DNA of 64,000 nucleotides from Rhizodiscina lignyota (lineage: Eukaryota). The stretch lies in assembly GCA_010015805.1 (NCBI GenBank), contig ML978126.1, positions 992,001 through 1,056,000 on the forward strand, written 5' to 3'. Below the pieces are notes generated by a model. The model was not told the DNA's origin, did no database searches, and was given only the letters and a program-made list of their open reading frames with translations. A program made the position numbers and the translations under genes. The stretch's first letter is position 1, and the number at the start of each line of letters is the position of its first letter. Below, one piece after another: positions 6,529-27,987 of this stretch.

Positions 6529-8179
6529 TCATTGATGGCCCACAGAGTTTGAGTTGTCCGCGCAGGAAAAAGCAGCGGAACCCCCAGAGGCTTTGTAAGA
6601 GTCAATGATGCCAACGATAGATCCGTAAGTACCAGCAATCATCAAGAAACTCCCGGAAACAACGACGAAGATACTCCACCAGACCATCAACCTCCATTTA
6701 GTGGTTCGCTCGGCCTTCCCCTTTCTCCAGTTATCATAGAGCCACATGCAGCCCATCGGCTGGAAGGACAAGAGTGTCCCAAGAAGAGCACCGATGAGCG
6801 AAACGAGGCCTCCGAAAACGGGGATGGAGCTGGCGATAATATAGGCGACCGCAGCGATGCTAAAATTGCAGCCAAACCATATTCCCCAGTGGAGGAAGGT
6901 GGGCTGGGTGAGATGTTTGCTGCCTCGCAGGAGTCGGACGAAAATGTACTTGCTAGGCAACTGTAACGTTGTTAGCACACAGCGCATATGAGATTTGGGA
7001 GTGGTTGTCTGCTAACGTGAATGACAAGCGTCGTAGTCACCAACAAACCCGGCATGGCAAAACCATAGCAGACCTTCTTCATGACTGCTCCAGCGGAGCC
7101 AAGGGCCGGCGAAGCAACGTAAGAACCGCAGTAGTAGTAAACCACGCAGCCAATTGCAATGTAGGTAGCAGTCACTCCAGATTGGCAGATTATCAGCGAC
7201 CGAGTGTAGTGGCGAGGGTCCCGCATCTCTGAGACGATTGAGAAGAAAGCCGGCGTGCCTGCATACGCAAAGACCAGAGAGGAGAGTGCGGAGCTGGCGT
7301 CTGCAAAGGACGGACTTTTGGCGAGTCTATAGTCAGAGACCCAAGGACCGGTTTGTGGTGCAGCAGAAGGGCGGTCTTGAACGCCAACCGCGATGGTGAG
7401 AGTCATGACTGTTTAGGATGTTAGAACTCACAGCCAACGAGCCTCCAGAAAGAGAACCTACTCGCAGTGATAATACATGTCAGTCCTACCCATGCAAGCC
7501 AACTGATTCGACCGAGAGTCTGGATGCTGGCAAGCAGGAAGCCTGCGATGGCGGCAACAGCGACGAAAGCTGCGGTACATGCGCCATGGGTCGAGACTGC
7601 GTTCAGGCCGATGGAAATACCGAGCATACCGGAGCCGGCGACAAAAACCCAATCTATGGTGAAGTCAGAGAGGGACATCCCCAGCAATTGGAGTGTGCAC
7701 TGACAAAGGCAGAAGGCCGTTCCAAAAACGATGCGACCAATTTGACCAAACATCAACCCGCCAGCGTCGTCGATACTGTAGACTTCACGATGGCGAAGCT
7801 TGAAAATACCGACCATATAGTCCGACCAGGTAGTTATCACAGCGATTGTGATGAGGCAAATAACGCCTGGAATCAGGCCCAAAACGTCGAAGACGGCCGG
7901 AATGGACAGCACGCCGAGACCAATCTGGGTTTTCATCATGAGCGCAACCGTTCCTAGCTATCCGACCTAGAAAGTTTTAGTTAATCTAAATTCCCCATAC
8001 TCCAAGGTACTCACATTGCGGTAATTGGGCCCTTTCTCTGTGATTTCGCCAAAGACGGCGTCGCGAGCAACAGTATCTGAGCCATCATAGACTTCGCCTT
8101 CCTTCGTGGTGGGAACGAGACCCAGCTCGTTACCGTCACCTTTGATTGCTTTGTCGGAGACCTGGAACGTATGAGACAT
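6529..8179 (-). CDS. Neutral amino acid permease (Aa_trans, Mtr-like), multi-exon
   Basis: Exons include DAVFGEITEKGPNYRNV, MMKTQIGLGVLSIP, FAYAGTPAFFSIVSEMRDPRHY and the C-terminal SAAFSCADNSNS typical of this fungal family. Confidence 0.92.
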
Positions 8180-8229
8180 TTTGCAAATGAGCACAGAGGA
8201 AGTGGTGCATTACGGTATTTCGCTCCAAT

Positions 8230-8541
8230 TTATCAGGGGCTGCTGGGAATTATAATCTTGCCTGGGCCCGCCCACTCGACGTCGGGTGGCAACTATAGAA
8301 CAAGTTTGGGCTATTCGCGTTTCCGAGCCGGGTATGCCTGCAAAGGCTCTGCATTATCTAAAGGTTTCCAAGATTGCGGGGGTGGAGCATGAAGTGAAGG
8401 AGATCTGGGGAAGTTATCACTCGGAAGCGCCGCCGATTATCAAAGCTTCCAGGGGTCAGGGGTCAGATTCTCACGGGACCGCGTCCGATGCGACATTAAT
8501 TTGTTCGGAATCTCACTCCCCTCCCCGGGAGACTGCGATAA
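8230..8541 (-). promoter_or_regulatory. Cluster of GATA (AreA-type) and SYGGRG (CreA-type) motifs upstream of the permease
   Basis: TTATCH at 8230, 8354, 8414 and 8437, CGATAA at 8536; GCGGGG 8376, GTGGAG 8382, CTGGGG 8405. These are short motifs, so function is inferred. Confidence 0.4.
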
Positions 8542-8855
8542 CTCCATTCACACCTTCTCGGAGCCGTAAGATGAAATCTTGCGAACTTTGCAAAAGGAAA
8601 AAGGCTGTACTCGCTCTCCAAAGGGTACATTCAACGTCATGGTATGTAGACAATGTCCAGCATATGGTAGGAAAGGTCGACTGGAATTAGTAGTTTTCTC
8701 TCGATGTCAACTTTGTGCGAGTGCAACTATTTTTATTTTGTAAATGGTCTTAAATTAAATATCGTTTTTGCAGCTCGTCGCTTCCACAAACGGTCGATCA
8801 GAGACCCGTAACCTGTGAACGAGAATAGATATACGATATATCTCAATTGCCCAAA

Positions 8856-10352
8856 TCAAGCGTATCTGCCCGTCAACCTGCGAAATAGCTCTTTCCTGAA
8901 TTCTGCGGCGCCCACACTCATTCCAGACGCAGCACCTCGATTTTCGACAAGCCTGCGGGTCAAATATTGCATGCATTCCTGAATACTGCCCCAAGTCAGA
9001 CATTTGTAAACTTTAGGGGTATATCTGTCAGCTGGCGGTGAAGTGCTCTGTTTTTTGACATCGTCTGCCATCTGAAGAAGCTCGCATCCGATGTCTTCGG
9101 CCATGCCCTGAAGCTGCCCAAACTCTGGTACGACTTTTAATTTAGATTGAGCTGCGAGACTAGATGCCAGTCGAGTTGCTCTCCGAATGCTCTCGGAGTT
9201 GTGCCCTGCCAGTAGCAGGTCAAGGTTTGTATCCTGGCGGTTTACCAATGCTGGAAAATGTCCACGGAGAACGTCCTCCACGATGCCATTGTACGACGCA
9301 TCTGTGTCTGCCTTTGTATCGTGGATCCTGTCGCGGATGTCATTGTTGATATAAGCGCCTCGAACAAGCTTAATACCCAAACGCCACCCTTCCTTCTGGG
9401 AAAGCTCCAGCTGGTGTTGAAGCTTGCCCCGTGACGATTTGAGGTAAGCCTGGATTGTGTTGTATATCAGAGCTTGCTTACCCGGGCGATTGTGGCGACG
9501 CATTAAGTCGAAAGTCCATTGATCTATGGTTTTCTGCAAGACTTGTTGCTCTGCATCGATCCATATGCGGCAACCTTTAGAGGCGGCTCGGTCGCATATC
9601 CTATCCATGGCCTCAACGAACTTCGACGGAGCTGCCCCACCTTGCAAAAGGGCTTCTGTTATGCGTGGCCCAGCACCCGTGTACCTAAGAGTGTGTTGGT
9701 GTCGTCATTCTATGATGCGAGGGAAATATCGACATCAGACTTACTTGATGCCTAGCCAGTCTCCTTCTCCGATCATATCCAAAGTCAAAAGATTTCCATT
9801 TGCCCACTGATCAATTTCCGCCTCCATCGTATCCACTGAGCTATTGGCATAGCCTACCAACCTGTTTCCCCCCTGGACTTGGACTTCTTTGCCGTAACAA
9901 AGCACGACGCCAGAGAATCCAAGGCGTCTAATCTCGGATGATGTTTGCGCGATTTCCGCTTGGTTCCTGCCGGCGCAAAATTGCTTTTAGATTAACGGAT
10001 GGATGGCAGCCCGAAGCAATGGATTTCGATCCGGATTAAGCCATGCTGATTTAGAGTTCGCAATCTTCTCGAAGATATAAAATGCTGGCCTGAAGAGCAC
10101 CGGAGAGGTGAAAAAGGCGCTTAACAGCAAATTTCGAACAATACTCGATGTTGACAGCCGTGCTAAAGGGGGCCTGGAAAAGCCATCGGGCCTTGCAGCA
10201 CTAATATTTGGGGCTTCCTTGGCCACAATGGTGTCGATGGGCTTCTGCGTGCTCAGAGACGCCTGTGGCCTGCGTTGGGTGCTCTGGAGATTTAGAGGTG
10301 GTCGGATCTTCAGGAATGTCCTAGTGCTAGTTTTGATGACAGACGAAGCCAT
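8856..10352 (-). pseudogene. put1: Proline dehydrogenase (Put1/PrnD-like) with mitochondrial-type N-terminus and one in-frame TAA
   Basis: Motifs QFCAG, IWIDAEQ, YNTIQAYL, GIKLVRGAY, FGQLQGMA and YLTRRLVEN; intron 9744..9685. TAA at 9987-9989 in HPLI*KQFCAG, a position usually Tyr. Confidence 0.8.
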
Positions 10353-11253
10353 GCTGGTTGACAATTCGACAGGTGTTGGTTGCAAATGAAACTGTTTAGT
10401 TACTTTATAAGCGTTAGATAGGATAGACCTCTCGGCCTGAGGACCGGTGATGTAGATATAAACGGCTACAAACGGCTCTGGTTAAGGCCACGCGCGGTTA
10501 TGTTCTCCGTCGAATCTACTGGCGACTCCAATGCATTGTGAGCAAGGTTGAGATTAGGTGTACACTATTCATTAATCTACACCGTCTGCACGTCGCCGCG
10601 CAGTATGTCCGCGTTGTACTCAAAGCCTTAAAGGCCGATCAGAGCATGTTGAAATTGTCAGAGCATCTGTGTCGGTTAACGAAAGGAACGTACAACCTTT
10701 TCCACAATGGCTCTTTCCCCGCAGATCACCGGGATCCACTATATCTAAATGGCCAGTTAGTTGGAGGCACATGCAAAGAGGGGAGGTTGGTCAAGGCCGT
10801 GTCGGTTATCGAGGACTTCTAGATCAAGCTACATGATGTCTGCGGGATGTGCATTTCCAATCATTTCGTAATATCAATTGAAGATAGGCGAGGCCTTCCG
10901 CAACGTATACCGTGTTCCGTTTCTCGGGCTGACATCCGTAGCGTCCACGGCGGGAGTCTGTCGGCCACAGTTCGCAACTCCGCTTGTTACAGCTGTTTGA
11001 TTCATCGAAAGAAATAATCTCCAAGATGGAGATCAATTTATAGAGTACCGGGAACATAACCGTTCTTCATGCATTTCTTCCGCATCGTCTGTAAGCGGGG
11101 AAGGTCTTGCTGTAATCAGCATTGGCTCATGGCGTGAACATGAGAACATCGACAAGCAATCGAAAAATCCATTGTGCTGTGCTAGCCATAAACAGTTCAT
11201 TGTAAATGCATATCGACGAGTCTAGATTTAAGGCCTAAGTATCTGGTACAAGA

Positions 11254-12659
11254 TTACAACCGTGCCTTCACCATCCTGTCCTGCTCTTCAACAACCTCTC
11301 GGATCTCTTTTGTCGTTCCAATTCTCCAGCTCACGTCATTGCCCCAGTCGGCGTCACGCTTCTGAGTCTGTCTGAACTGCCGTCTCGGCCGAACTTGTCT
11401 TCCATCTCTCAAGAGCTTCAAAACCCACTCCCCGACGATTGGCATCATCTTGAACCCGTGCCCAGAGTCCCCAGATAGTACAATCAATGAACCCCCAGTA
11501 TCTGGTACAAAATCGACGCAATACTCAGAGTCGGATGTATCCGAGAACCAGCATAATCTCTGGTCGACAAATGGGCGATCCGCTAACTGTGGTAGTGTCT
11601 CTTTTAATAGTCTTCTCAACTTCTTTTCGTCAGACGCTGGTATATAATCCTTTGGTGCTCTTTGTGAGCCTGAAGGAGGCAATGAAAGCCCCGTGTTCGC
11701 ATCCGAGTTAATGTATCCTGCACCCAGCGGGCAGAGCTTGAGGAGTCGAGTTGCTGGATCCGGTTCGAAGAAGAACCCGAGATCTCGTACATTCAGTACA
11801 GGAATTCCGCGCAGGTAATCGCACTCGCGCTCGGTGAGTTGAACATGCGCTACAGACCAGCATTTGGCGATCACGAAGGAGCCCATCTCTGGGATAAGTG
11901 TTGCGGCATAGGCCCCCACACAAACAATCGTCCGTCGAGCCTGGTGGACCCGTCCGCTGGCCACTTGAAATCTGGTGCAACGCCGCTCAGAGGGATTGGA
12001 GGTGTTGTAGAGAAGCTTTACTGCCTTTCCTTCTTGGGCTCCCAGGATGAATTTAACGCCCCTGGAGACTAGATATCGGTGTAAATCTGCCATTGCGTTG
12101 GAGGAATGAGCGTAACCCGCAAGTCGATTCAGATAGCCTTTGAAGCCAGTCATCGGACCACTAAATTGCCAGTAGATTTTCTTAAAATCTTCAGACTTGT
12201 TTAGAGATGAGATTCCTGGTGCAAAGACGGGATGGTCTTTGATCGAAGAAAGCGCCGCTTCCAGGTGATCGACCGCCTTTGCCGGTGCTGCGCTCGATGT
12301 AGCGACGACATAGCCGACTTGATGGAAATTCCAACCCCAAAAGGGAGTTCTCCAGCGATTTATGGCTTCCTGAACTCAGTGTCAGTTGTCGTCTAATAAA
12401 CTGGTGTCGCCAACCCTTTGCCGTCTGGCGGATTGGACGGATCACTTACGAGAGCTAGCTCAGTGTAGAATTCATCCTCATATTCCGCTCGAACAATTTT
12501 ATTCAAGTCATAAGCTCCCGAGTATGGTGAAGGTACCTCCGATGCTTGGTCGAAAACTGTCACATTTGTGTATCCCGCGTCAATCAGATGAAGTGCAGTC
12601 GACAAACCCCAAGCGCCTGCTCCCAGTATAGCAACTACCTCTGTTTTATCTCCATCCAT
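11254..12659 (-). CDS. FAD-dependent oxidase of the sarcosine/L-pipecolate/fructosyl-amine oxidase family
   Basis: N-terminal VAILGAGAWGLSTALHL, SGAYDLNKIVR, LCWFSDT and LSGDSGHGFKMMP. One intron (~12449-12371); the spliced frame is open. Confidence 0.88.
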
Positions 12660-13155
12660 TTTGATTCGCTCGAGAACTCTATGAATTATGGGTCTGATAG
12701 AGGCCTTAGTGATTACGAATAGTTCCGTCCTAGAAAGTCATTACTATGCGAAGCTGGGGTTTATATGAACGCCTCAAATTAGATGCCTGAACCGACTGGC
12801 TAAGGCAGATAGGCAACTGACTGGCTCCTCTTCAAGATCCTGAGAGATATGCACGGGTTCTGTGCAGTCGCCATTGCGAAAGACCGTTTTGGCGCGGCTG
12901 GATACGGATCGGAAGGGCTTCCGACAGCACTTCCTTCACACTTGAGTTCACATATCCGGGAATCGGTAGACGGCCCCCTACCGTCGTTAGTCATGTAAAC
13001 TCACTCTAGCTATGTGAACAAGTCTTGATAAGCTGGATTGAGTTTTACGGAGAAGCACATCTATGTAGCTAAATGAGAACAATAGAGCATCTTGAACGCG
13101 AGCAAAGCATTGCATTTCTGCTTATACATACTAACTTCTCGCAACCTCTTGGCCG

Positions 13156-14369
13156 ATGGAACAGGCACCACTTGCTATAGCATCCGCAACGCCACGGACG
13201 GAAGTCGGTCGTAATCCTGCAATAGACACGCTGGCCGGTGCCGCTGGGGGAGTTGTTTCTGTTTTCCTGGGTGAGTGTGATAAGGCTTTAAAAAAGATAT
13301 TCTGACACGGCAAATTACAGGACAACCTTTCGGTGAGACATGGCGGTCTGCCAGCTGCGATGTGTTTAACGTCTAATTGATATAGATTTAATAAAAGTGC
13401 GACTTCAGACTCATAATTCCAGTAATGTATTTCGAGTAGTGTCAGATAATTTTAAGAATGAAGGAGCGTTGGCATTCTACAAAGTGAGCAATTCAACATA
13501 TCGCCATTTGGGAATCCAATTTCTGACCAAAACCGTAGGGGGCTTTGCTGCCATTCTTAGGATCAGGAGCCTCGGTAAGTCTGATGTTTCTTCACCAATT
13601 TCGGCGATGTGAGCTGCTCACGGTGCGATAGGTAAGCGTCCAGTTTTCCGTGTTCCACAGCATAAGGCACACTCTGGAAACTCTGAGAAGTCGACGTTTG
13701 GGTCCTGCTGGGTATCAGCTATCCCATCTAGAGCTGTATCTGGCTGGCGGCGCGGCTGGGGTTGTGAACAGCGTAATATCAGGCCCAGTAGAGCACATCA
13801 GGATCCGGCTTCAAATGCAGCCCAGCGGCACTGCTCGACTTTACTCTGGGCCGTGGGATTGTATCCGGAAAATAGTACGCGTGTCCGGCCCCCAGGGCCT
13901 ATTCCGGGGACAAAATATGTCTATTGTGCGCGAGTTTCAAGCATTTGGTTGCTACTTCGTGACATTTGAAGGCTGCCTCCGCATGATTACCGCTGCAAGA
14001 AAGCAGAGGCGAGAAGAGCTATCGACCTGGTTGGTCGCGTCTTGTGGTGCTCTTGCCGGCATAGCATTCTGGGTTGGATGCTATCCGCTGGATGTTGTCA
14101 AAACCAAGTTGCAGAGCGACGGATTCGGCCAACAGCAACGCTACAAGAATGCGTGGGCAGCGGCTGTGCAGACGTGGAAGAGTGGGAGAGTCAAAGCGTT
14201 CTGGAGGGGCCTCAGTCCTACTCTGCTGAGGACGATGTTGTCATCCGCGGGAACCTTTGCCATGTAAGTCCAACTTCTTGCGTAGTGTCGCTTGAGTGCT
14301 GATCAGGCGTTAAGGGTTGAAAACGTCAGGAGACTTCTGGCAGAGGACACCGCTAATAATACGGAGTAG
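13156..14369 (+). CDS. Mitochondrial carrier (SLC25; Ymc1/ornithine-carnitine carrier-like), multi-exon
   Basis: Three carrier signature repeats: QPFDLIKVRLQ (spliced), GPVEHIRIRLQ and YPLDVVKTKLQ. Confidence 0.9.
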
Positions 14370-15041
14370 CGCTGAGGGGTATGGTATGGTTGGATTCTGT
14401 AGGAAGTGTCAGGAGGTGATCAGTGCGCCTTAGCGCTCTCCTGTTAGTCGTACCTGTAATTGTATATAACCTAGCACTTCTCCTGGAGAGCTTCTTTCCT
14501 CAATCAACTGCGCTTCAACGTTCGTGCTCCGACGGGAAGATTCTTGAATCACTACCACTGCCCAATTCTTCCTGGGTCTGGCGGGGAAGTTGGTTGGATC
14601 ATGGAAGGACAGGGTGTTCAATGGCCAGGTAGCCCGACCAGAGCACAATGTCGGGCTGTTCCGGTCAGGGGTCTACATTTTCTCGCCACTGACATTCTAT
14701 AAACGCTGAGATAGGTGAGATAGTTCCAGAATAGAGCTTCCAGGCCCATAAAGCGGATGGACAGTAGTTAGTTAATCAGGGCTAGCCTTGTTTCGATTAG
14801 CGTGGTAATCTCGGATCCTTACCCGTGGCTTGCGGAGTATAACGACACTACCAACTATGATAACCGTAAACGAGGAGAAATCCCGGGCTTCTCAGCAAAT
14901 CAACAGAGGAGCACGGTGGTCATATTTACTCCAGGTCCAGACACGTTAAGAATTATTGAAAAGCTGTGTTTGGGCGCTCTTCTCCGTTGTCTCAGGTCCT
15001 GTCTCCAACTGCAAGATATCCTTTTCCTCAACAGTGTCAAA

Positions 15042-15973
15042 ATGACTCACTCCCCAGGCTCCAAAAATTTCCGCCTCGCAATCCTCGGCTGCGGTGCGTT
15101 CCTTAACCGCACGACTCGGAGGGCAGAGTGCTGACACGAATGCTAGGATTCATGGGAACAGCACTGCTCTCCGGCATTATCAAAGCCCTTGGTGACTCCC
15201 CCCGTGAGCAGATCAAATTTTCAGTCAGCGCTCCCTCGCAGACCTCGATCCAACGACTACAGCAAGCGTTTAGTTCGCACAGAGACCAAGTAGACTCCAT
15301 CACGACAGATAATGTTGATGCTGCTAGCGGTTCCGACATTATCATCCTTGCCTTCCAGCCACAGCAACTCACTGGAGTCTTGAGTGACTCTGCTTTGTTG
15401 CAGGCTCTTCAAGACAAATTAATTATCTCTGTCTTGGCTGGGGTCTCCTCTCGACAAATCATCGAGGCAGTCTACACCAGCTCTGAGTTGACTCGACAAA
15501 GCCGTGTATCTCGCGTTATTCCAAGCATTGGTGCGCAGATCAACGAGTCTGCATCACTGATTGCCGAGACTTCTCTCTCCCAGTCCGACCGAGACTTGGT
15601 TGCGTGGCTGTTTCAATTGGTCGGCCGAACAGTGGTCGTTCCAGAGGAACTCATCGATACCGCTACTGCAGTTAGTGCTGCATGTCATGCTTTGACAATC
15701 GTCGCAGCCGATGCCATTGTCGATGGGAGTGTTGCAGAAGGCATCCCGCGGCCGATAGCGCTGGATATTGCAAGTCAGTCTCTGCGTAGCTCTGCTTCGA
15801 TGTTACAAGGGCATGCGACGATTGAATCGTTAAAGGACTCATTGTCCATTGCTAAGGGTATCACAGTAAATGCTCTTTTACAGCTAGAGCGGGGCAATAT
15901 GAGATCCGGAATCTCTGATGCTGTGAGACACGCAGCGCAATACGCACAAGCGATGTCCAGTGGTAATGAATGA
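15042..15973 (+). CDS. proC: Pyrroline-5-carboxylate reductase-like protein (divergent)
   Basis: LAILGCG/FMGTALL dinucleotide-binding start (one intron ~15094-15147), DIIILAFQP, LIISVLAGVS, SRVIPSIGAQINES and a dimerisation-domain-like C-terminus. Confidence 0.85.
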
Positions 15974-16084
15974 TATTCTAATTTCAAAGTATGCGTATAT
16001 CTATTTTGGCAAAACGATTCAACTTTTAGATTCTACGAAGTTGAAGAGTCTTTCAGATACCAAACACTGAACAAGCTTCTCCGT

Positions 16085-17062
16085 TCATAAACGGCCCCGA
16101 GTTGACGCTAACAGCCGCTTCTCCTCCTGATCCACTGTCTCCATTACACTGCGAATTGATTGCTTCGCAGTGTCTGATGGCTCTTGGTAAGGTCTTCGTG
16201 GCTTAAGCAAGCGCACAGCATCAGAAATGCCTGCTTTTGGAGCAGTGAAAATCGCAGCAGCGTATTTCGTGTTGGCAATACCCGCCTTGGTGGGTGACTC
16301 GGCCAACGCCACTTGCTGCTGAAATGCGAGAGCTTCCTCATATTTCCCACTCTTCCACAATTGGTATATCTTGACGATGGCCCTAGGGAAGACGTTTCCG
16401 AATGCTGCTATACACCCCGAGCTTCCAGCAGCAAGCCCTCCAACTAGAAAATCGGACTGACCTCCGAAGACCGCGAAGCGGGAGGCGGGAAATGTGGCCG
16501 CAAGGCGTGTGATCTTCGCAACCGAGCCACACGTCAACTTCACGCCCACCACATTTTGATTCTCTTGGACTATCTCCGTGATGATTTCGGAGTCGAGATC
16601 CAGACTGTTGCACACGGCCGGAAAGTTGTAGATGACGATTGGAAGAGGAGACTTCGAGGCAACCTGTTTGTAAAACTCTCGAACGACGGCCGACGTGGTC
16701 TGTTTGCCGAAGTATGCGCAGGGAAGAACAAGTGCGTAGTTGGCCCCGGCATTGTGCGCGTCTGTGATGAATTCGAGCACCTGTGCCGTGAAATGACCGC
16801 TCACTCCTGCAATAACGGGATATCTCTCCGGCACGGATCTTCGTGCCAGCTGGAGCAAGACCTTCCGCTCCTCGCGGGTCAACAAGAATGTCTCTGCATT
16901 GGTGCCTAGGATGACAAGCCCTGTGAGACCCGTGCCTGCTAGATAAGAGTAATATCTGGCTTGTTCGTCGAGACGGAGTCGGTCTGTGTCAGGATCGAAG
17001 AAAGTTACTGCAGGAACGTAGCAGCCAGGGCTGGGAGGTTTAGCAGCCGCTCGTGAAACCAT
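16085..17062 (-). CDS. DapA/DHDPS-family class I aldolase (HOGA1 / 2-keto-3-deoxy acid aldolase-like)
   Basis: PGCYVPAVTFF, LGTNAE, IVIYNFP (catalytic Tyr) and VGVKLT (Schiff-base Lys). No introns. Confidence 0.9.
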   Translation of the reverse strand: MVSRAAAKPPSPGCYVPAVTFFDPDTDRLRLDEQARYYSYLAGTGLTGLVILGTNAETFLLTREERKVLLQLARRSVPERYPVIAGVSGHFTAQVLEFITDAHNAGANYALVLPCAYFGKQTTSAVVREFYKQVASKSPLPIVIYNFPAVCNSLDLDSEIITEIVQENQNVVGVKLTCGSVAKITRLAATFPASRFAVFGGQSDFLVGGLAAGSSGCIAAFGNVFPRAIVKIYQLWKSGKYEEALAFQQQVALAESPTKAGIANTKYAAAIFTAPKAGISDAVRLLKPRRPYQEPSDTAKQSIRSVMETVDQEEKRLLASTRGRL

Positions 17063-17495
17063 GATTGTTGAGATTATGGACTTGTGCTGGACTCTGGTCA
17101 GCTCAAAGTCTTTTATTAGTCGTTTACTTGAACGACACAGGCCCTTATGACGATACAAGTATCTGCACCTACGTCCCAGAAGAGGATCTCGGGCACGCTC
17201 CCGATGCCTATGAATAGCCGGATACTGGACTAGCAAGGGAGTTCTCGGAAGCATCTACTTCGGCACCACAATCACTGGTAATTATCGCATCTGCACTCGG
17301 CTCCGCCATGCAGAGTGCTTGGCTTTGGCACGGATATTGGCAAGGCACTAGTCAGTAGAGCAAAAAAGGCTGTACTAGTGTATACAGCATTTAGGTGATT
17401 TTAGCCTTACAGGTCACTATCGTTCACCCTTACTGTTTTGCAGCGTAGCAACTGATCTATTTTCACAGGCGCTTTGATTAGCTAAAATTATTGAC

Positions 17496-18050
17496 CTATT
17501 CTGCAGCAATCCAATTTAGAGCATCGAGATCTATTGATTCCGCGAAATTCATTAGCTGCTCCGCAGTAAGCCCATCTTGCCAGTGGAACTCCTCGACGGG
17601 AAAGTCCACGCCCATTGTTTGGGATGACGATGTGTAGGGAGTTGGAGGAGCAAGTGCAGCAGGACCTGGAGGGGGTGCTGGGGAGGGTCGCCGCTCACGC
17701 GCAGCAGAGCGACGCAGGCTCGACGGACGAGTGTTTGTGACTGTTTCAGCCCTTCTATTAGGGGGCAGGCGGCTTAAGCATATTAAGTAGATTCTACGAT
17801 CAATAGAATAAAAGCTTAAAAGACAAAGCACTTTACGACAAATAAAGTAAAGATATTAGAGGGTATATAGGAATATACAAGCTTCGCCGAGTTGGCACGA
17901 ATATATTAAGTAAATAATAGAGTACAATCGAAGAGAAGTTTAATCTACAAGGTACTTTATAGAGTGTACGACTTATGAATACAAAATCTTAAGACATAGT
18001 AGATTTGACGATACGTACAGTAGAAGGTATAAATACGTAAAATTTCGAGG
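17496..18050 (-). pseudogene. Gene relic with acidic/aromatic C-terminus resembling a Zn2Cys6 activation tail; 5' part TpA-rich and degraded
   Basis: Pro-rich linker then EEFHWQDGLTAEQLMNFAESIDLDALNWIAAE*. Upstream 17780-18050 is AT/TpA-rich with no recoverable start. Confidence 0.4.
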
Positions 18051-18251
18051 CGTCCGCCATCGACAAAGTGAGACCGTGAGACAAAATGTACCAACGGCGG
18101 GAACTAGGTAACGACTGGTCTAGCGCTAGGTATTCAATGCTCGATAGTCTAGTTAAGTAAGTCAATTGCTCTTTCTTTTCTCTCCCTTCTCAGATCTCAG
18201 GTTGTTCCGCACGCTAGAGCTTGCTGGCTGCTCCAGGACCCATTCACTTTA

Positions 18252-19856
18252 TTATTCCGAATTCAGCTTCTTGTAGATGAGTCTACGAGCCAACCAGCAG
18301 CCAATCGTTAGGCCCACGACGTGACTATTATCATCTATTTGAGAAACAACAGTCCAATCTCCTGGTGCCGGAGCGTCCACCCCTCGTGCACACGCAACAG
18401 TCCACACCTTCTCGCCCAAGCGTTTCATCAGGTTTGCTGGCCCGCGGCCAAACATTCCATCAAACGCACCATACAATGTGATGCCGGTGCCCTCACATCG
18501 AAAGGTCGAATCTATTTCCTCGCAATAATAAACGCCTTGCAAGGAATGGGTGGGCTGCATTTGGCCGTCAAGAATTCGGTTTGCATCGAGTACTCGGTTG
18601 TCTTTGAGACGTTGTACAGTGAGCGTATTGTTTTGGAGCGTGACGACCATATCTTGCGACTCTGCACGAGAGGCTGTAACAAGATTTACGTTCTCGGGGT
18701 GATGACCAGCGTAAGTGATGAGGAGCCTTCCGCTCTCTGTCGGGTCGAGGGCGATCGTAACTGCCAATTGGGTATCCGAATCGAGAAAACTTCCCATCCA
18801 CTCTTTACTCGCTTCTAAATTGAGGCTGGGGGTTTTGGGTATATTCAAAACCTTGCGCAGAATGAACTCAGCAGCACCTGCTGCATTGGCTTCATGATTG
18901 AACAGGACAATGACAGAGATGCGCTCTGCTTTAGCGTACAAGCGATAAGATCTAAAGCCTCGGAGTGCACCACCATGCCCGACGGTGGAAACATTCCCAA
19001 CATCGCCGTGGACCAGACCATAACGGTATCGCGCAGGCGTTCCATCAGTGAAAGTTCGTGGTTCGACGATGGATCGGTATGGCCCATCTGACTTGGACCA
19101 AGACAAATCGAAGAGGCGCTCATAAGCAATCATGTCGTCTAGAGATGCTACAATACCAGCATCGCCCGCCCATTCAATGAAGTTTTGCGCTCGCACAAAG
19201 CCATGCTGCTCATCTCCCTCGTACCCAACACATGGGGAAGGAAGTTTGGAAGTGTCTGGGCAGAGGAGTGCTGTAGTCATACCGGCTGGCTTAAAGACTC
19301 GCTGAGTTAGCAGGTCTCCGAGAGGTTCGTTGCAGACGCTCTCGATCAAATGTCCGAGCAAGTAGAAATTGGTATTCGAGTAGGAGAATTCCGAACCGGG
19401 TCGGAAATGGAATGTTTTATGCCAATGGATCATTTGTCTGGCGTCATTCGAAAGCGAAAATCGACTCTCCGGGAGGGCGCCACAGGCCATACACAGTGCC
19501 CAATAGTCTCGCAACCCAGACTGCATGTCGCATAAGCGGTCGATTGTTAATTCATTATCGTGCAACAGCTTTTCGGGGAGTAGATCTTGGAGCTTTTCAA
19601 ATAAACGCTCTTTGAATCCTCCGGATCCTGCCATTGCTGGGGGTGGGGAGTGCTCCAGATCGATAAGAAGTCGGCATATCATCTGTTTCGTAATCGAGCA
19701 TATGGGCATCTGGGTCTGAGATGACATGGGAATTCTTTGTTCGAAATCAGCATAGCCCCACACATGTCGAGCAACTACTTCGCCGTCCTTCAAGACGGCT
19801 GCCGCACCACCCGGTCCTCGAAAGGCATCAGGCACCAGTTGGATAATCTCCTCCAT
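18252..19856 (-). CDS. dap: D-aminopeptidase (serine beta-lactamase fold plus DAP B/C domains), intronless
   Basis: RGPGGAAAVLKDGEVV, MPICSITKQ (SxxK), YSNTNF (YxN), HGGALRG and C-terminal DAPAPGDWT...GCWLAR, all resembling Ochrobactrum DAP. Confidence 0.88.
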   Translation of the reverse strand: MEEIIQLVPDAFRGPGGAAAVLKDGEVVARHVWGYADFEQRIPMSSQTQMPICSITKQMICRLLIDLEHSPPPAMAGSGGFKERLFEKLQDLLPEKLLHDNELTIDRLCDMQSGLRDYWALCMACGALPESRFSLSNDARQMIHWHKTFHFRPGSEFSYSNTNFYLLGHLIESVCNEPLGDLLTQRVFKPAGMTTALLCPDTSKLPSPCVGYEGDEQHGFVRAQNFIEWAGDAGIVASLDDMIAYERLFDLSWSKSDGPYRSIVEPRTFTDGTPARYRYGLVHGDVGNVSTVGHGGALRGFRSYRLYAKAERISVIVLFNHEANAAGAAEFILRKVLNIPKTPSLNLEASKEWMGSFLDSDTQLAVTIALDPTESGRLLITYAGHHPENVNLVTASRAESQDMVVTLQNNTLTVQRLKDNRVLDANRILDGQMQPTHSLQGVYYCEEIDSTFRCEGTGITLYGAFDGMFGRGPANLMKRLGEKVWTVACARGVDAPAPGDWTVVSQIDDNSHVVGLTIGCWLARRLIYKKLNSE

Positions 19857-20490
19857 GCTAGGCACGCAATTATGACAGAAGTACCAAGGGAAAGGAAACG
19901 AGTTTGTGATAGAAAAGGGATCCACATCAGCTGGTGTTATCAGTTGCTGTTGGCGCCGAGCCGAGGCTGAACCGAAGCCATATCGTTTGACGCTAACTGA
20001 AGAGAGCAATGGAAATAGTTGAGTTGAACTCGACCATAAGTGTGGATACGAAACTTATTAAGGCACCGCAAGGCCATTAAACAGATTCCGGTTATAATTA
20101 AAGAAAAGCTTGATAGGTAAGAAGCTTTACGCAAACTATGCCCAAACAAACGACGATCTTCATAAGCGAGCTGTGAACCACGTGAGTGTATTTAATTCTA
20201 GTGTTGTGAGCTAGACATGGACAAACCGTAAGTTGAGCTCCTATATATAATCAAATCGAAACTCAAAAGCCCAGCACGAGGCAGGAGTTCCTAGTCCGCG
20301 ACCCCGGAAAGTAAGCCTTTGCATGCTTACACAGAAATTGCTTCATTAAGTCTACATTGTACAGCATATACAACCTGGCAAATCACGCAGACCCCACTCC
20401 TGCTTTTTAAAAGGTAAAAAGCCAGAGGATAAATAGCTAATTCGCTCTGTGACATAGTGAAGAAGCCTCAACGCACAAGACTCTCTCTCT

Positions 20491-22449: not shown

Positions 22450-22875
22450 GTTGAGTCGTGAATCGCAAATGAGTAGGTCGAATTCGAATAATAACTGTTC
22501 CTGTCAAACGGTCAACTGAGTACCAGGATCGATGTTATATAGACCCTTTGAAAAGGAGAGCAATTGCACGTGGTCGGGTCATGACGCAGGGGATGTCGTT
22601 ATGACTTCAGCACCCGTCAATGAACGCCCGCAAAGTGTATCACAGCATGATGTCGCAATGACGCCTACAATTCTAGGAGCCCCTCAGCAGTTAATTATTC
22701 AAAATGTATGACTATTACATTTTGAAACTAACAACTTGACATGACGCTTCGACTCTCGCGATCACTTCGAGTTCATCTCTACCTAATCAGAGGTTCACGA
22801 TATCAAAAATTCCCGGAATCTCGTATCGCTCTGTCGGCCATCTGGGAGCAACAGAGGACATCGACCACTGCCAAT

Positions 22876-24600
22876 ATGGTGACCACTCGCGCAATGGCTA
22901 CTTCGCAATCAGACCCTCAGAAGTTTCTCCATACTTCAGGAGTGAATGAGTCCGTATGGGTCCATCTTGATCCGCCATCCAATCGGCCAACTTTCTCAGC
23001 ACTGGATCATGACCTGGAGACGGAAGTATGCATTGTTGGCGCCGGAATTGCGGGTATTAGCACCGCGTACGAGCTAGTCAGCCGCGGGCATGAAGTCACG
23101 TTGGTCGAAGCCAGGGAAGTCTTATCCGGTGAAACTGGTCGTACAAGCGGTCATCTATCGAATGCGCTCGATGATGGCTATGTCAATATCAAAAAGAAGC
23201 ACGGTCAGTCCGGAGCACAAGCTGCTGCTGACAGTCACACCTGGGCAATCAACAGAGTTGCCGAAATCGCCAAGTCCCTGAACATCGAATGCGAGTATCG
23301 AAAGCTGCCGGCTTATGAAATCTCCCAGTATCCTCGAGGCGATCAGGAACACGACAAGGAGGTCGAGAACCTCAAAGCTGAAGTGGCGGAAGCATCGAAC
23401 CTTGGCCTTGATGCGGAATTCCGCGACGGTCTCGCGATCAAAGGCTGGGATGGTAGCATCGACCAGCGGGATGGAGCTGTCTTCAATGGCCAAGCCACCT
23501 TCCATCCAACCAAATACCTAAATGGTGTCTTGCACTGGCTCAAGGAGCAGCCGAAATTCCAATGCTTCACCCACACCCGTGTGGTATCACTTGAAGAGAA
23601 GGGCATTGAAGTCTTCGGCATCGGCAATACGACTGTGCAGATCCAGACTGAAGCCGGACACACCATCAAGTGTGGTGATGCCGTCGAAGCAACTTGTGTG
23701 CCTCTACAGAAACTGAGCGTCATCGCGGAGATGGAGTACAACCGTACATACTGTATCGCCATGCGCTTGCCGAAAGGCTATGTTGAAGATTGCCTCATAT
23801 ACGATGAAGCCGAGGAATACAAATACGTACGTCTAACCGCATGCGACGACACTCACGACTACATTGTTGTCGGTGGTTGCGATCACAAAGTTGGACAGGA
23901 TGATCCAACCGGTCGATTTGAAGAGCTAGAGAATTGGACTCGCGAGCGTTTCAAGAAGGCAGGGCCTGTCGACTACAAGTGGAGTGGTCAAATTTTTGAA
24001 CCGGTAGATTACATGGTATGCTACCGCCCAGCATTCACTCGTACGCATGACTAAATTCTCTTGAAGGCATTCATCGGTCTTAACCAGGGCATGAAGCACA
24101 CGTACATTGTGACTGGAGATTCTGGCAACGGACTCACTCACGGTGTTCTTGCTGGCAAACTGATCTCGGACGAAATTGAAGGCGTCGGCAATCCATGGTC
24201 TAAGCCGTACTCGCCCAGCCGTCTATTGTCCATTGCCAAATCGCTTCCAACCATGCTTGGCCACGACATCCAAATCAACATGCAGTACAAGCGCTTCTTG
24301 GAGAGTGACCTGAAAGATATCGAAGACCTCGTTCCTGGTTCTGGAGGCGTCCTCAATCCCACTGCTAAATCCCCGATAGCGGTGTATAAAGATGACGACG
24401 GCAAGGTTGAGGAGTTCAGCGCGCTCTGTCCACATCTGAAGGGAGTCGTTTGCTGGAATTCCGTTGAACGGTCATTCGATTGCCCTGTTCATGGAAGTAG
24501 ATTCTCCAAAGATGGGATCTGTATCCAAGGCCCCGCAAAGGCAAATTTGAGCCCTGTGGACCGCGCCGCTGAGAGCGCGCAGGGGGTGGAGGCAAGTTAG
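22876..24600 (+). CDS. FAD-dependent oxidoreductase (DadA-like) fused to C-terminal Rieske [2Fe-2S] domain (YhfW-like)
   Basis: VCIVGAGIAG, SGETGRTSGHL and TGDSGNGLTHG; Rieske motifs CPHLKG and FDCPVHGSRF. One intron ~24016-24066. Confidence 0.9.
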
Positions 24601-25000
24601 AGGCGTTGGCCTGGAATCAAGCAAGTATGAGACAAGGACAAGAGTCTCCGGCTCAAGCTCATTGTGGATGCGTGGGTGGGGTCATTTCGGTATCGTATCG
24701 CCTCTGCTCGAATGAATGACGATGCAACACGGTTAACAAAATTTGGCTTGTTCCAACCTCTTTTAACAATACCATGAAATTTTGCATCTTTAACCTCGGA
24801 AATGAACTCTAGGAAATGAACTTTAGGACGGCCGCACCGAGCGGCCGCACCTGCAGATACGTGGCGGGTCGACTTCGGCTTCCTCAGTGAGACTGCATCT
24901 GCTCACTCTTCCTTCAATCTTCGCCCAAACTCTGCTTTGACGCTATCGCAAAATATAAAACTTACCATGCTTCTTCGAAGCCCATACAATACCATCCTCT

Positions 25001-27274
25001 ATGTCTGCTCCTCACTACAGTCCTTTGCAGTCGAATCTGGGTGAAATTCGACTTTTACAGTTGAATCCCGCAGGAACCGTAGGCGCTCCTCTCGATTGCT
25101 CTTTGGAGCGCGCCTTTCTTTCCTCCAATCCACGCTTCGAGGCTTTATCTTATACATGGGGTGAACCCGGCACTGAACAGATCATTCTGCTTGATGGCAC
25201 GGAGTTCCGGATCCGCGAAAATCTCTCGGCCGCTCTACGACGACTGCGACATGCAAGTCAGCCAAGACGTCTGTGGACTGATGTGATTTGCGTCAATCAA
25301 GATGACTTGGATGAACGCAGAGATCAAATTCTACTAATGGGATCTATTTACCAAAATGCAGAGCAGGTCGTCGTCTGGCTTGGGGAACTGACAGCCGAAA
25401 GCATTGTTGGAATTAAAATGCTGGACAACTGGTTCAAATTTTCTTGGCAGCACTTCAAATCTGAGCGTCAGAGGAATGTATATTCCCTCTCTCACTGGAA
25501 GAATGTCTTGTCAGATTCCGCTTCTCTTGAGGAGCGCAGCAATTACTCCGAAGAGCATGGTTTTGGAGAAGTTAGAGAGTTGCTTGATAGACCTTGGTGG
25601 CGGCGGGTTTGGATTGTTCAAGAAGCCGTCCTCGCTCAAACACTCGTTGTTTTGTGTGGCACAGAAACCATCCAATGGGAAAGCTTTCAAAGTGCAATCC
25701 AAGGTGGTAGCTTGAAGCTGGGTAAGCATGCTGCTGGCCACAAACGCCCGTCCGCGTTGAGTGACTGGCCCGATGCTTCATACCAAGCCATTAGCCTCCT
25801 TCGCCAAGAACGCAAACATACTGAATGGAAGAAGAGCATCTACGACCTCGCGTATAGTTTCCGGACATCAGAGTGCACCGATCCTCGCGATAGAATATAC
25901 GCCTTCCTTGGACTTGCAACAGATCTCGATGGAGCGGGCATTTCACCAAGTTACTACTTGTCGATCGCCGAAGCATATACAAATTTTGCACGAACATGTA
26001 TTAAACACCATTCTCACCTGAAAATATTGAATTGCAAGCGACAGCAATATCAAGAAGATGTAGCAGAGAGCCAGATTCGCGCATACTCTGTGAACGACCA
26101 AGCTCGGTACCACGACACGGAAGCACAGATAACAGATGGAAAGAAGACACGCGTTGGATGGGCACCACTGCCTCATGGATGGGAGAGAATTCAGGATGGC
26201 AAAGTGTCCTTTTTCAGAGATCATCTGTCGGGTAAGGAGAGTAGCATTAGCCCGTTGGCTGCACTGGCCCCATCCAGAGAGATCCCTTTCGAGATGCGCC
26301 GAATTTCCCCCCCTGGATGGACGAAAACGTGGGACAATGTCGGTCGTGCTAAGATCCGCTTCACCGGCGATTCTTATTTGTCCAAAGCTGCTACGTCAGT
26401 CTCAAATCTGCATTTACCTTCGTGGGTTCCGGACTGGGCATCGAGTTCCACTCGAGATCCTGCCCCTCTACTCGACTTTTCAGCTGCACAGCCAAGATTT
26501 TTTGCATCCGGCCAGGACACTACGTGCCGCATCTCCCCTCAAGACGATGTTCATCAGCTGAATTTAGAAGGTGTGCTGTTCGATGAGATCGAGAAACTCG
26601 CTCCGGCCTGGCACCCTACTTCCATTCAGCCGCCGCTCTCTCGGAAAGGGGTCAAAATCTTAGAAGAGTGGGAAACTCTTGCATTGGCACCTGTACCAAG
26701 TTGTCCGTATAATTCCTGGAGTAGCCGTGAAGAAGCGTTCATGCGGACACAACTTTGTGACTCGAGGAGTGATGAATCACTACCTCCCCAGACCAATACT
26801 TATTTCGACGTGTGGCGCGACGGAGCAAAGTGGGCACCGGACGCACCGGAATATACTGGCAAAGCCTACTACCAAGCCTGGTATGAAGATTCCAAGAGAA
26901 CTTTCGCGGAAGTTCACATGCTCAAATATCATATGAAACTCACCTTCGGAAAGGCAGGACTACCGGGCTGGGATGAGAAGAGTCAAAGCATTATACAAGG
27001 GTATAACGAGTGTGCGCAAAGCATCTATCGCGCCTCTGCGCACAGGGCCATTTTCGTCACCAGAAAAGGATATATCGGTCTCGCACCTTGGAACGCCAAG
27101 TTGGGCGATCAAGTCTCTGTCCTGTTGGGCGGCCACACACCATTCCTTCTTCGACCGCTCCCGGAACCATCCACGTTCACCTTGGTGGGTGAATCGTATG
27201 TCTACGGGCTAATGAAAGGCGAAATCTTTCAGGGCGAGACTAAGCCGAAAATTGAGACAATTTGCTTAGTATAG
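25001..27274 (+). CDS. HET-domain (HET-6-like) protein with a WW-like insertion
   Basis: EIRLLQL, FEALSYTWG, LWTDVICVNQ, MGSIYQNA, PWWRRVWIVQE, CTDPRDRIYA, LPSWVPDW and LVGESYVYGLMKGE. Confidence 0.92.
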   Translation: MSAPHYSPLQSNLGEIRLLQLNPAGTVGAPLDCSLERAFLSSNPRFEALSYTWGEPGTEQIILLDGTEFRIRENLSAALRRLRHASQPRRLWTDVICVNQDDLDERRDQILLMGSIYQNAEQVVVWLGELTAESIVGIKMLDNWFKFSWQHFKSERQRNVYSLSHWKNVLSDSASLEERSNYSEEHGFGEVRELLDRPWWRRVWIVQEAVLAQTLVVLCGTETIQWESFQSAIQGGSLKLGKHAAGHKRPSALSDWPDASYQAISLLRQERKHTEWKKSIYDLAYSFRTSECTDPRDRIYAFLGLATDLDGAGISPSYYLSIAEAYTNFARTCIKHHSHLKILNCKRQQYQEDVAESQIRAYSVNDQARYHDTEAQITDGKKTRVGWAPLPHGWERIQDGKVSFFRDHLSGKESSISPLAALAPSREIPFEMRRISPPGWTKTWDNVGRAKIRFTGDSYLSKAATSVSNLHLPSWVPDWASSSTRDPAPLLDFSAAQPRFFASGQDTTCRISPQDDVHQLNLEGVLFDEIEKLAPAWHPTSIQPPLSRKGVKILEEWETLALAPVPSCPYNSWSSREEAFMRTQLCDSRSDESLPPQTNTYFDVWRDGAKWAPDAPEYTGKAYYQAWYEDSKRTFAEVHMLKYHMKLTFGKAGLPGWDEKSQSIIQGYNECAQSIYRASAHRAIFVTRKGYIGLAPWNAKLGDQVSVLLGGHTPFLLRPLPEPSTFTLVGESYVYGLMKGEIFQGETKPKIETICLV

Positions 27275-27987
27275 CCTTGTGCTTAGCATAGTCGACCAGC
27301 TCGAGTGTGGCGGCGTTCTGTGCGGCTGATACTCACTGCTCAGGGACATGCAAGGGACGCAAACTCCAGATCGCTGTCTCTGTGGAACAGCAGCATTCTT
27401 TCAAGAGCAAGTGCAGCGATTACGGTAGCAGTTTATAGGGTGCAGTGTGGTATTGTGTGCTCCTGTCTCTATAAACGGGAGGAGTAACACTGTGACTCTT
27501 CTTATACCGCTTCCAAAACGACCTCACCTTACTTTCTCCTGAATCGGCCTTCCTTATATTTTCCCATTGCTCCAACTATCTCTCCTGCTCAATTGTGTGA
27601 GTGACCGAAAGTAACCCATGATTTTTGGACATTCCATAGACAATAAAGCTATAGTGACAGAACGACCATCGGATGCATGCTGCGCAGCCGCTAAAAATAT
27701 GACACCTCATTAATAGCCTTTAAGACGTATATAAACACCACCTTTGACGGCACTATCATTTCCTGTACACTCCAGATCCGAGTCCACTATGCGGGGTACA
27801 AGCAGCCGAAGGCACACTCTTAGCGCGTTGCATATCTCAACATCAGCGTTGATGAATAGTTTCGGATCAACATACTCCGTATCGTATATGATTCTCTGTG
27901 ATATTCTTTTTGGATCAGTTTTTATCGGAAGATATTCATTACACACTCTAATCTTTTGTTTTGAAGCTTCTATTTGTGTCACTAGGC

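Follow-up and report, generated by a model that had tools for sequence, protein, structure and literature searches.

What do six adjacent genes in the genome of Rhizodiscina lignyota, a member of the Dothideomycetes (order Aulographales), do together? The window studied here, 64,000 nucleotides of contig ML978126.1 (positions 992,001 to 1,056,000 of the forward strand, assembly GCA_010015805.1), is intron-bearing fungal DNA, and gene families in it were assigned by a Pfam search of 16 open reading frames (ORFs) of the region. Side by side between positions 6529 and 17062 lie genes for an amino-acid permease, a member of the proline/hydroxyproline dehydrogenase family (PRODH), a FAD oxidase of the fructosyl-amine/sarcosine/pipecolate oxidase family (FAOX-like), a transporter of the mitochondrial carrier family, a divergent member of the 1-pyrroline-5-carboxylate (P5C) reductase family (P5CR-like) and a class-I aldolase-type protein of the dihydrodipicolinate synthase (DHDPS) or DapA family (DapA-like). 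An earlier interpretation made from the letters of the DNA, hereafter the sequence-only reading, had named these six families, and Pfam found each of them where it had been placed. Evidence from other fungi supports a conserved, clustered module of imino-acid catabolism, not a set of chance neighbors. On balance, this module probably serves the catabolism of trans-4-hydroxy-L-proline by a mammalian-type route, of which R. lignyota would carry a horizontally acquired and decaying copy.

The genes for PRODH, the FAOX-like oxidase and the DapA-like protein are the core of a recurrent cluster, which is widespread in Pezizomycotina but not universal. PRODH occupies positions 8856..10352 on the minus strand of the window, with the Pfam domain Pro_dh at 8856-9704 (E 2e-48) and a long N-terminal extension, and is broken at codon 122. 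The oxidase gene (11254..12659, minus strand; Pfam DAO at 11254-12737) has one intron, and its product ends in -ARL, a type 1 peroxisomal targeting signal (PTS1). The DapA-like gene (16085..17062, minus strand; Pfam DHDPS at 16085-17254, E 1.5e-33) belongs to the clade of the solved structure 3QFE. The usual companions of the core are the carrier and the divergent P5CR-like gene, and fuller versions of the cluster add a Put2-type P5C dehydrogenase (P5CDH) and an aspartate aminotransferase (AspAT). The carrier gene (13156..14267, plus strand; Mito_carr at 13370-14267, E 2e-40) is divergent from the oxidase gene and has an apparent micro-exon of 12 nucleotides; its matches in an Atlas search were all 'mitochondrial carrier' clusters. 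The P5CR-like gene (15042..15973, plus strand; P5CR_dimer and F420_oxidored at 15107-15973) has an intron at 15094-15146, which, like the micro-exon, was read from the sequence.

When metagenomes were scanned with the DapA-like protein, 16 loci were obtained, among which L003 and L014, and likewise L004 and L005, have the same sequence over the genes compared. These loci were examined by tblastn with the exons of the window, by Pfam on 81 ORFs and by follow-up tblastn. In L003/L014, a class I/II aminotransferase, a FAOX-like oxidase (67% identity), PRODH (65%), a DapA-like protein (72%), an aldehyde dehydrogenase (ALDH), a P5CR-like protein (31%) and a carrier (52%, the range for the window carrier being 48-52%) are encoded within 13 kb. 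Locus L007 has PRODH (68%), the DapA-like gene (72%) and the 3' end of an ALDH of the L003 type. A Zn2Cys6 regulator, a DapA-like gene (78%) and a partial P5CR-like gene (65%) are found in L001, in the order seen in the window. In L004/L005, an aminotransferase gene divergently adjoins the DapA-like gene (67%), followed by genes for a 2-hydroxyacid dehydrogenase, a D-amino-acid-oxidase-like protein, a major facilitator superfamily transporter and an oxoprolinase. The arrangement at L004:11414-13880, in which the DapA-like gene is paired with AspAT only, may be a second, different set of glyoxylate/imino-acid genes. Loci L009, L011, L013 and L015 are too short for partners to be judged, and L016 carries a distant DapA paralogue (27% identity).

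Linkage was also found in named genomes, for which homologues of the DapA-like, FAOX-like and PRODH proteins were taken from the best 120 of 2018, 775 and 753 matches, respectively, together with one accession look-up. PRODH and FAOX-like genes are consecutive in Cladophialophora yegresii (A1O7_08382/83), C. carrionii (G647_07347/48), Exophiala sideris (PV11_02749/50) and C. chaetospira (KAJ9608627/28). In C. chaetospira the DapA-like protein, KAJ9608632, stands four further on, which brings all three genes within six accessions. Tricladium has FAOX, PRODH and DapA within five accessions (KAH8672611/14/15), and PRODH adjoins DapA in Dirinaria (Q9191_001341/42) and Zasmidium (62192/62191). Core genes are near neighbors in Cyphellophora, Coleophoma cylindrospora, Pyrenula ochraceoflavens and C. 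immunda. The species bearing the cluster are presumably spread over Eurotiomycetes, Dothideomycetes, Leotiomycetes and Lecanoromycetes. Among these best-120 lists, the contigs in common number 15 for DapA and PRODH, 20 for FAOX and PRODH, 10 for DapA and FAOX and four for all three, and 26 of the 58 PRODH contigs of at least 15 kb are also on the DapA-like or FAOX-like list; contig sharing was judged by equal 'longest contig' size, a proxy under which one or two of the matches between very short contigs may be accidental. The sequence-only reading had proposed a search for co-occurrence, and three of its families (PRODH, FAOX-like and DapA-like) are indeed linked in many ascomycetes, both as consecutive tags or accessions and on common contigs.

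Linkage of the same families in many other fungi puts the adjacency beyond chance. That the genes are chance neighbors or single housekeeping copies with no joint function is therefore barely credible, being largely refuted by a linkage that recurs across four or more classes, with the genes in rearranged order. The P5CR-like protein is, moreover, highly divergent from the solved P5CRs, and a broken PRODH would hardly be tolerable as the sole housekeeping copy if proline use matters. However, some observations count against a fixed association. The DapA-like gene has no partner in L002, L006, L008, L010 and L012, where the flank covers 1.4-10 kb on at least one side, and its solitary state in the last four of these speaks for chance neighborhood. 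It is also on another contig in Lithohypha and Clarireedia. The tags of the DapA-like and FAOX-like genes are widely separated in Elsinoe batatas, Rhinocladiella mackenziei and Coniosporium.

The contents of the fuller clusters bear on the substrate. With a match to yeast Put2 (4OE4) at E 8e-158, the L003 ALDH is identified as a P5C dehydrogenase. The L004 aminotransferase is of the aspartate type (1YAA, E 1.6e-87), and that of L003 is 40% identical to it. Neither P5CDH nor AspAT was found by tblastn in the 64-kb window, in agreement with the sequence-only reading, which had reported a P5C dehydrogenase and a transaminase to be absent and had expected them to be supplied from elsewhere. These steps are located in the clusters of related fungi, P5CDH in L003 and at the edge of L007, and AspAT or an AspAT-like enzyme in L003 and L004. 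The presence of P5CDH and a transaminase inside the cluster is the strongest argument for a 4-hydroxyproline (4-Hyp) route. In mammals, 4-Hyp is degraded to pyruvate and glyoxylate by PRODH, P5CDH, AspAT and a DHDPS-family aldolase, as described in the accessible parts of PMC3188589 and PMC5144071. The same four enzyme families (PRODH2/HYPDH, ALDH4A1, GOT2 and HOGA1 in mammals) are linked in the window and its relatives taken jointly, the genes being clustered in fungi and unclustered in animals. The fungal cluster differs further in having a peroxisomal FAOX-like oxidase, a P5CR-like gene and a carrier.

Judged from gene context alone, trans-4-hydroxy-L-proline is the likeliest substrate, and we likewise infer which way the flux runs and what the oxidase, the P5CR-like enzyme and the carrier do. 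In the proposed pathway, a mitochondrial PRODH would oxidize Hyp to 3-hydroxy-P5C, P5CDH would convert this to 4-hydroxyglutamate, and the aminotransferase would yield 4-hydroxy-2-oxoglutarate (HOG). The DapA-like enzyme would then cleave HOG, yielding pyruvate and glyoxylate; the site of this step would probably be the peroxisome or cytosol and not the mitochondrion. Glyoxylate as a product would be in keeping with the 2-hydroxyacid dehydrogenase gene that adjoins the DapA-like gene in L004, since that family includes glyoxylate reductase.

A cluster for proline itself was considered as well. The prn cluster of Aspergillus nidulans consists of prnA, prnX, prnD, prnB and prnC, with a PrnA-type regulator, the APC-type permease PrnB and the P5CDH PrnC beside PrnD. 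The cluster described here is likewise a fungal imino-acid catabolic cluster with PRODH, P5CDH (in L003), a permease and a Zn2Cys6 regulator (in L001). It could thus be prn-like, with these four components doing the work of proline utilization and the remaining genes being riders, unrelated or accessory. The Put2-type P5CDH of the fuller cluster, the regulator adjoining in L001 and the public name of the PRODH record of the window (P0242), 'proline oxidase PrnD', would agree with this. We regard it as improbable all the same. A DapA-family aldolase and an aminotransferase recur as partners and are unneeded for proline breakdown, and the PRODH belongs to a clade distinct both from the Put1 proteins of Schizosaccharomyces and Metarhizium and from a second Dothideomycete 'PrnD' clade. 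Relative to prn, the fungal cluster adds the DapA-family aldolase, the aminotransferase, the FAOX-like oxidase, the P5CR-like protein and the carrier, while the window has a permease of the Aa_trans type instead of APC, a relic regulator and no P5CDH in its 64 kb.

The 4-Hyp route requires an aldolase for its last step. The DapA-like protein (P0001, 325 amino acids) has 3QFE as its closest solved structure (E 4e-125), with which it is colinear over 304 residues. This entry bears the depositor's name 'putative dihydrodipicolinate synthase family protein'; it is a structure without an assigned function and gives no substrate. The sequence-only reading had called the aldolase HOGA-like, but HOGA1 (3S5N/3S5O) matches at E 5e-26, no better than YagE (3e-29) or a true DHDPS (3e-28). 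By similarity, then, the protein is not a HOGA1 orthologue and falls in the uncharacterized 3QFE clade. Active-site columns were compared in alignments to DHDPS and YagE, read through the residue equivalences in the accessible part of PMC3188589. That part gives Lys196 and Tyr168 as catalytic and Ser77, Asn78, Ser198 and Tyr140 as substrate residues of HOGA, and contrasts the loop GSNGE of HOGA with GTTGE of DHDPS, in which the Ser198 column is Ala. The DapA-like protein, with the motifs GTNAE, Y-N and K-x-T, retains the Schiff-base Lys and the equivalent of Tyr168, as well as the Asn of the GxNxE loop. In its loop GTNAE, Asn stands at the Asn78 column, where DHDPS has Thr, and Thr replaces Ser77, while the K-x-T motif puts Thr at the Ser198 column. 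These residues would be compatible with a 4-hydroxy-2-oxo-acid aldolase and are no proof of HOG as its substrate. The low rank of HOGA1 among the solved relatives and the Phe at the Tyr140 column speak against such an activity, and K-x-T also occurs in YagE, so these residues do not single out HOG. A galacturonate aldolase of the GaaC type was considered for this protein and set aside: judged by names, none of the source names among the best 120 of its 2018 matches suggests GaaC.

The compartments of the predicted enzymes also differ from those in mammals. HOGA1 is mitochondrial, and the sequence-only reading had invoked this mitochondrial setting. However, the catalytic domain of the fungal aldolase begins about 12 residues from the N-terminus, leaving no presequence. 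A canonical PTS1, mostly SRL, ARL or SKL, is present in 39 of the best 120 homologues, and many others end in x-T-L; the C-terminus is GRL in the window and SKL in L001. The signal is far more regular in the oxidase, where a C-terminal [SAC][KRH][LM] occurs in 114 of the best 120 homologues and ARL, as in the window, in 104. None of the best 120 PRODH homologues ends in a PTS1. The pathway would accordingly be divided between mitochondria (PRODH and P5CDH) and peroxisome or cytosol (aldolase and oxidase). This split gives the carrier a plausible role.

The oxidase (P0122, 441 amino acids) has amadoriase II (3DJD) as its closest solved structure (E 1.3e-44), with weak matches to MSOX and MTOX (E 7e-6). 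Its best 120 homologues bear the source names saccharopine, sarcosine or pipecolate oxidase. It may act as a second peroxisomal imino-acid oxidase or as an N-demethylase, and the P5CR-like enzyme would perhaps reduce escaped 3-hydroxy-P5C or P5C. However, the four-step route has no necessary role for either the conserved oxidase or the P5CR-like gene, and this weighs against the assignment to 4-Hyp. The same is true of the D-amino-acid-oxidase-like gene of L004, two genes from DapA, which also fits the bacterial logic of a D-Hyp oxidase and a deaminase.

These points lead to a further possibility, namely that the peroxisomal pair handles another imino acid or isomer, such as cis-4-hydroxy-D-proline, the products of N-methyl-hydroxyproline or betonicine, pipecolate or hydroxypipecolate. 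The FAOX-like enzyme would either form a cyclic imine or strip off an N-methyl group, the DapA-like protein would be a deaminase/dehydratase like the bacterial pyrroline-4-hydroxy-2-carboxylate deaminase, and PRODH and the P5CR-like enzyme would handle the released proline or Hyp. In this way the conserved oxidase gains a role, and the PTS1 of both proteins, their common contigs and the D-amino-acid-oxidase-like gene near DapA in L004 are all accommodated. Bacterial Hyp clusters likewise combine a DAO-family flavoenzyme with a DHDPS-family enzyme, the bacterial route using them as oxidase and deaminase (PMC5144071, in its accessible part). We nevertheless consider this possibility unlikely. 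The ALDH of the cluster is clearly of the P5CDH type and not of the 2-oxoglutarate-semialdehyde type, and AspAT, linked in two independent loci, would be superfluous for such a route. Pfam detected no member of the proline-racemase family, to which the bacterial-type hydroxyproline 2-epimerase belongs, either in the 16 ORFs scanned in the region or in the 81 from the related loci. Enzymes of the FAOX/MSOX family, in addition, oxidize a C-N bond away from the carboxylate. In contrast to the bacterial Lhp/Hyp clusters, the presence of PRODH and an aminotransferase beside a P5CDH-type ALDH predicts pyruvate and glyoxylate as end products, not 2-oxoglutarate.

The mammalian-type 4-Hyp route would be served by enzymes that are themselves unusual members of their families. 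The PRODH of the window is 65-77% identical to orthologues that adjoin the same partner genes, and no solved relative was found at E 1e-5. Searching 1.84 billion representatives turned up 1967 relatives of PRODH. From 59 listed representatives of 400-650 amino acids and 8 named proteins, a FastTree with 67 rows was built; shorter or longer rows were dropped, and source names were available for 20 rows. In this tree, 11 rows of cluster-type PRODHs group together in one clade (support 99), apart from a clade with the Put1 proteins of Schizosaccharomyces and Metarhizium and an Aureobasidium protein (support 98) and also from a further clade with Dothideomycete proteins of Trichodelitschia, Aulographum and Bogoriella (36-38% identity). 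In the comparison with housekeeping enzymes that the sequence-only reading had suggested, PRODH thus stands apart from Put1. The P5CR-like protein matches solved P5CRs at best at E 1.6e-22, and that of L003 also at only about E 1e-20. Together with the distinct PRODH clade, this distance argues for specialized paralogues of both enzymes. A discordant point is that the P5CR-like gene of the window (15042-15973) and that of L003 (L003:13816-14652) encode proteins only 31% identical, though their neighbors reach 52-72%. This low identity may reflect either the recruitment of different paralogues or very fast evolution.

The R. lignyota copy itself is probably inactive and in decay. In PRODH, codon 122 is an in-frame TAA (9987..9989, minus strand), which stands in place of the invariant Tyr of a Y..F.AG motif. 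The sequence is colinear with the intron-less L003 orthologue, which has Tyr at this position. The motif is present in 40 of the 44 PRODH homologues of at least 400 amino acids, the exceptions being the model of the window itself and three shorter models. The public model, P0242 (468 amino acids), excises 9960-9989 (minus strand) as a GT...AG 'intron' of 30 nucleotides, with the loss of ten residues including the conserved motif. This 'intron' is an annotation artefact that hides a probable pseudogene. Readthrough of these 30 nucleotides or their genuine splicing is unlikely, the latter because it removes ten residues with the invariant motif. An assembly error is also unlikely, because a Logan contig of sequencing run X1 (depth 157) is identical to the window over 9700-10300. 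X1 is, however, probably the source run and not an independent strain; it is the only run found with this DNA, and no RNA run is on record, which tempers the conclusion of decay. The sequence-only reading was right about the family of this protein and overlooked its stop codon.

The second lesion concerns the regulator. Between the DapA-like and D-aminopeptidase-like genes, the sequence-only reading had noticed a possible relic of a transcription factor. The relic is real: it is the 3' end of a Zn2Cys6 regulator gene (17496..17700, minus strand) and matches the C-terminus of the L001 regulator by tblastn. The ORF that contains it (17496-17855, minus strand) has no Pfam match, and its last ~46-58 residues are 50-52% identical to the C-terminus of the full-length L001 protein. 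In tblastn with the L001 regulator, only positions 17499-17636 of the window were matched (52% over 46 amino acids), and the other three parts of the protein found nothing. The L001 gene is complete, with its zinc-cluster motif, and adjoins the DapA-like gene in the same position as the relic in the window. A motif scan detected no complete Zn2Cys6 motif anywhere in the window. Among the related loci, the scan found the regulator in L001 and not in L003, so it is not a demonstrated general member of the cluster. With a nonsense codon in PRODH and the regulator gene deleted save for its last ~50-70 codons, the copy is probably non-functional. The other cluster genes look intact and their branches in the trees are not unusually long, so the inactivation would be recent.

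Where did this copy come from? Trees were built from the named sequences of the best-120 lists with IQ-TREE in 'quick' mode under LG+G4, with branch support from the SH-like approximate likelihood ratio test (SH-aLRT) only. For P0127 / P0260, the same protein is listed both for Elasticomyces elasticus (Dothideomycetes) and for Exophiala sideris (Chaetothyriales), which suggests a mislabelled or contaminated public assembly, and these proteins were treated as unassigned. Rhizodiscina lies inside or beside the copies of Herpotrichiellaceae (Chaetothyriales) in all three trees, namely those for PRODH (30 rows, SH-aLRT 96), the FAOX-like oxidase (37 rows, 98) and the DapA-like protein (26 rows, 98). 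The other Dothideomycete copies are found elsewhere; apart from that of Rhizodiscina, the class labels are those we take these species to have. Approximately unbiased (AU) tests reject a grouping of Rhizodiscina with Dothideomycete copies for PRODH (p 1e-6), FAOX-like (3e-66) and DapA-like (1e-4 and 2e-6), with groups that were picked after the trees had been seen. Three gene trees that join Rhizodiscina to Chaetothyriales suggest horizontal transfer followed by decay, and we consider horizontal acquisition of the cluster reasonably probable. The choice of groups tells against this, and ancient paralogy with differential loss may explain the trees instead. In the accessible part of PMC3318441, the transfer and death of the bikaverin cluster in Botrytis has the same pattern, genes that group with another class and are partly degraded in the recipient. 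Bikaverin, however, is a secondary-metabolite cluster, whereas the present one is nutrient-catabolic and its transfer is judged from three single-gene trees only.

Collagen and the glycoproteins of plant cell walls are rich in hydroxyproline, and to our knowledge the consumption of this imino acid by fungi is essentially unstudied. The literature searched, which did not cover most subscription journals, held bacterial and mammalian hydroxyproline pathways only and no description of a fungal hydroxyproline catabolic cluster, so that the word 'undescribed' in the sequence-only reading agrees with what was found. Fungi do carry homologues of 3-hydroxyproline dehydratase, according to the accessible part of PMC5144071. 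The sequence-only reading holds as to clustered imino-acid catabolism with Hyp-type steps in relatives, and fails as to HOGA1 orthology and a mitochondrial aldolase; membership of the permease finds no support in other genomes, and the copy is probably not a working one. What would be new is a clustered, compartment-split fungal version of the animal-type Hyp route with extra members. A bolder form of this proposal, which we put forward only tentatively, is a dedicated Hyp pathway of filamentous ascomycetes split between mitochondria and peroxisomes. It would have a peroxisomal 3QFE-type aldolase releasing glyoxylate, a new FAOX-family oxidase of Hyp or N-methyl imino acids and a new P5CR paralogue acting as a 3-hydroxy-P5C reductase, and the module would move between classes by horizontal transfer and decay where it is unneeded, as Rhizodiscina would exemplify. 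The conserved cluster offers a testable gene set for Hyp use in wood-, rock-, lichen- and animal-associated ascomycetes. It also points to a likely function for the solved but unannotated 3QFE family and to candidate new specificities in the P5CR family and in the FAOX oxidases, which are used in diagnostics. The R. lignyota copy would be a nutrient-catabolic example of cluster transfer and death, and the nonsense codon masked by a 30-nucleotide 'intron' is flagged here as an artefact in a public model.

The genes at the two ends of the region seem to be outside the module. The permease gene (6529..8179, minus strand) has about four exons, with PF01490 (Aa_trans) on three exon ORFs (6529-7957, E 3e-9 to 1.6e-14) and a start at 8179 taken from the ORF at 7967-8209. 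The D-aminopeptidase-like gene (18252..19856, minus strand) has the Beta-lactamase and DAP_B domains at 18252-20054, as expected from the sequence-only reading. By tblastn, neither gene has a counterpart in the 16 related metagenome loci. Their inclusion in the module is thus without support outside the R. lignyota genome, and the D-aminopeptidase-like gene is a neighbor for whose membership there is no evidence. The cluster is not set off from its surroundings by base composition. Between the permease and PRODH genes, an ORF at 8256-8690 (plus strand) contains a C-x2-C-K-R-K-K stretch like the start of a zinc-cluster motif; the remaining cysteines are lacking and it has no Pfam match.

Farther along, the 3' part of a hybrid polyketide synthase-nonribosomal peptide synthetase (PKS-NRPS) gene (57435-63998, minus strand) runs off the window. 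It has ketoreductase (KR), acyl carrier protein (ACP), condensation (C), adenylation (A), thiolation (T) and reductase domains. A cytochrome P450 fragment (55549-56544, minus strand) adjoins it, 40 kb from the cluster and with no link to it seen. In principle, the six genes might make pipecolate or a hydroxyproline as an imino acid for this synthetase. In some NRPS clusters, pipecolate is the product of P5CR-like reductases, and the synthetase and P450 are in the same window. Such a supply role is extremely unlikely, given the 40 kb of HET, peptidase, transporter and other genes in between, the absence of a synthetase from the 10-kb flanks of the related cluster loci and the catabolic gene content (PRODH and P5CDH). 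Closer to the cluster, there is a DAO-Rieske fusion oxidoreductase (22732-24600, plus strand) and, 3 kb on, an HpcH/HpaI-family aldolase (27952-28806, plus strand). Both families act on amine or 2-oxo-acid substrates, and neither gene has a counterpart in the related loci. The window also contains two genes with the HET (heterokaryon incompatibility) domain, at 24959-27274 and 50406-52640, both on the plus strand.

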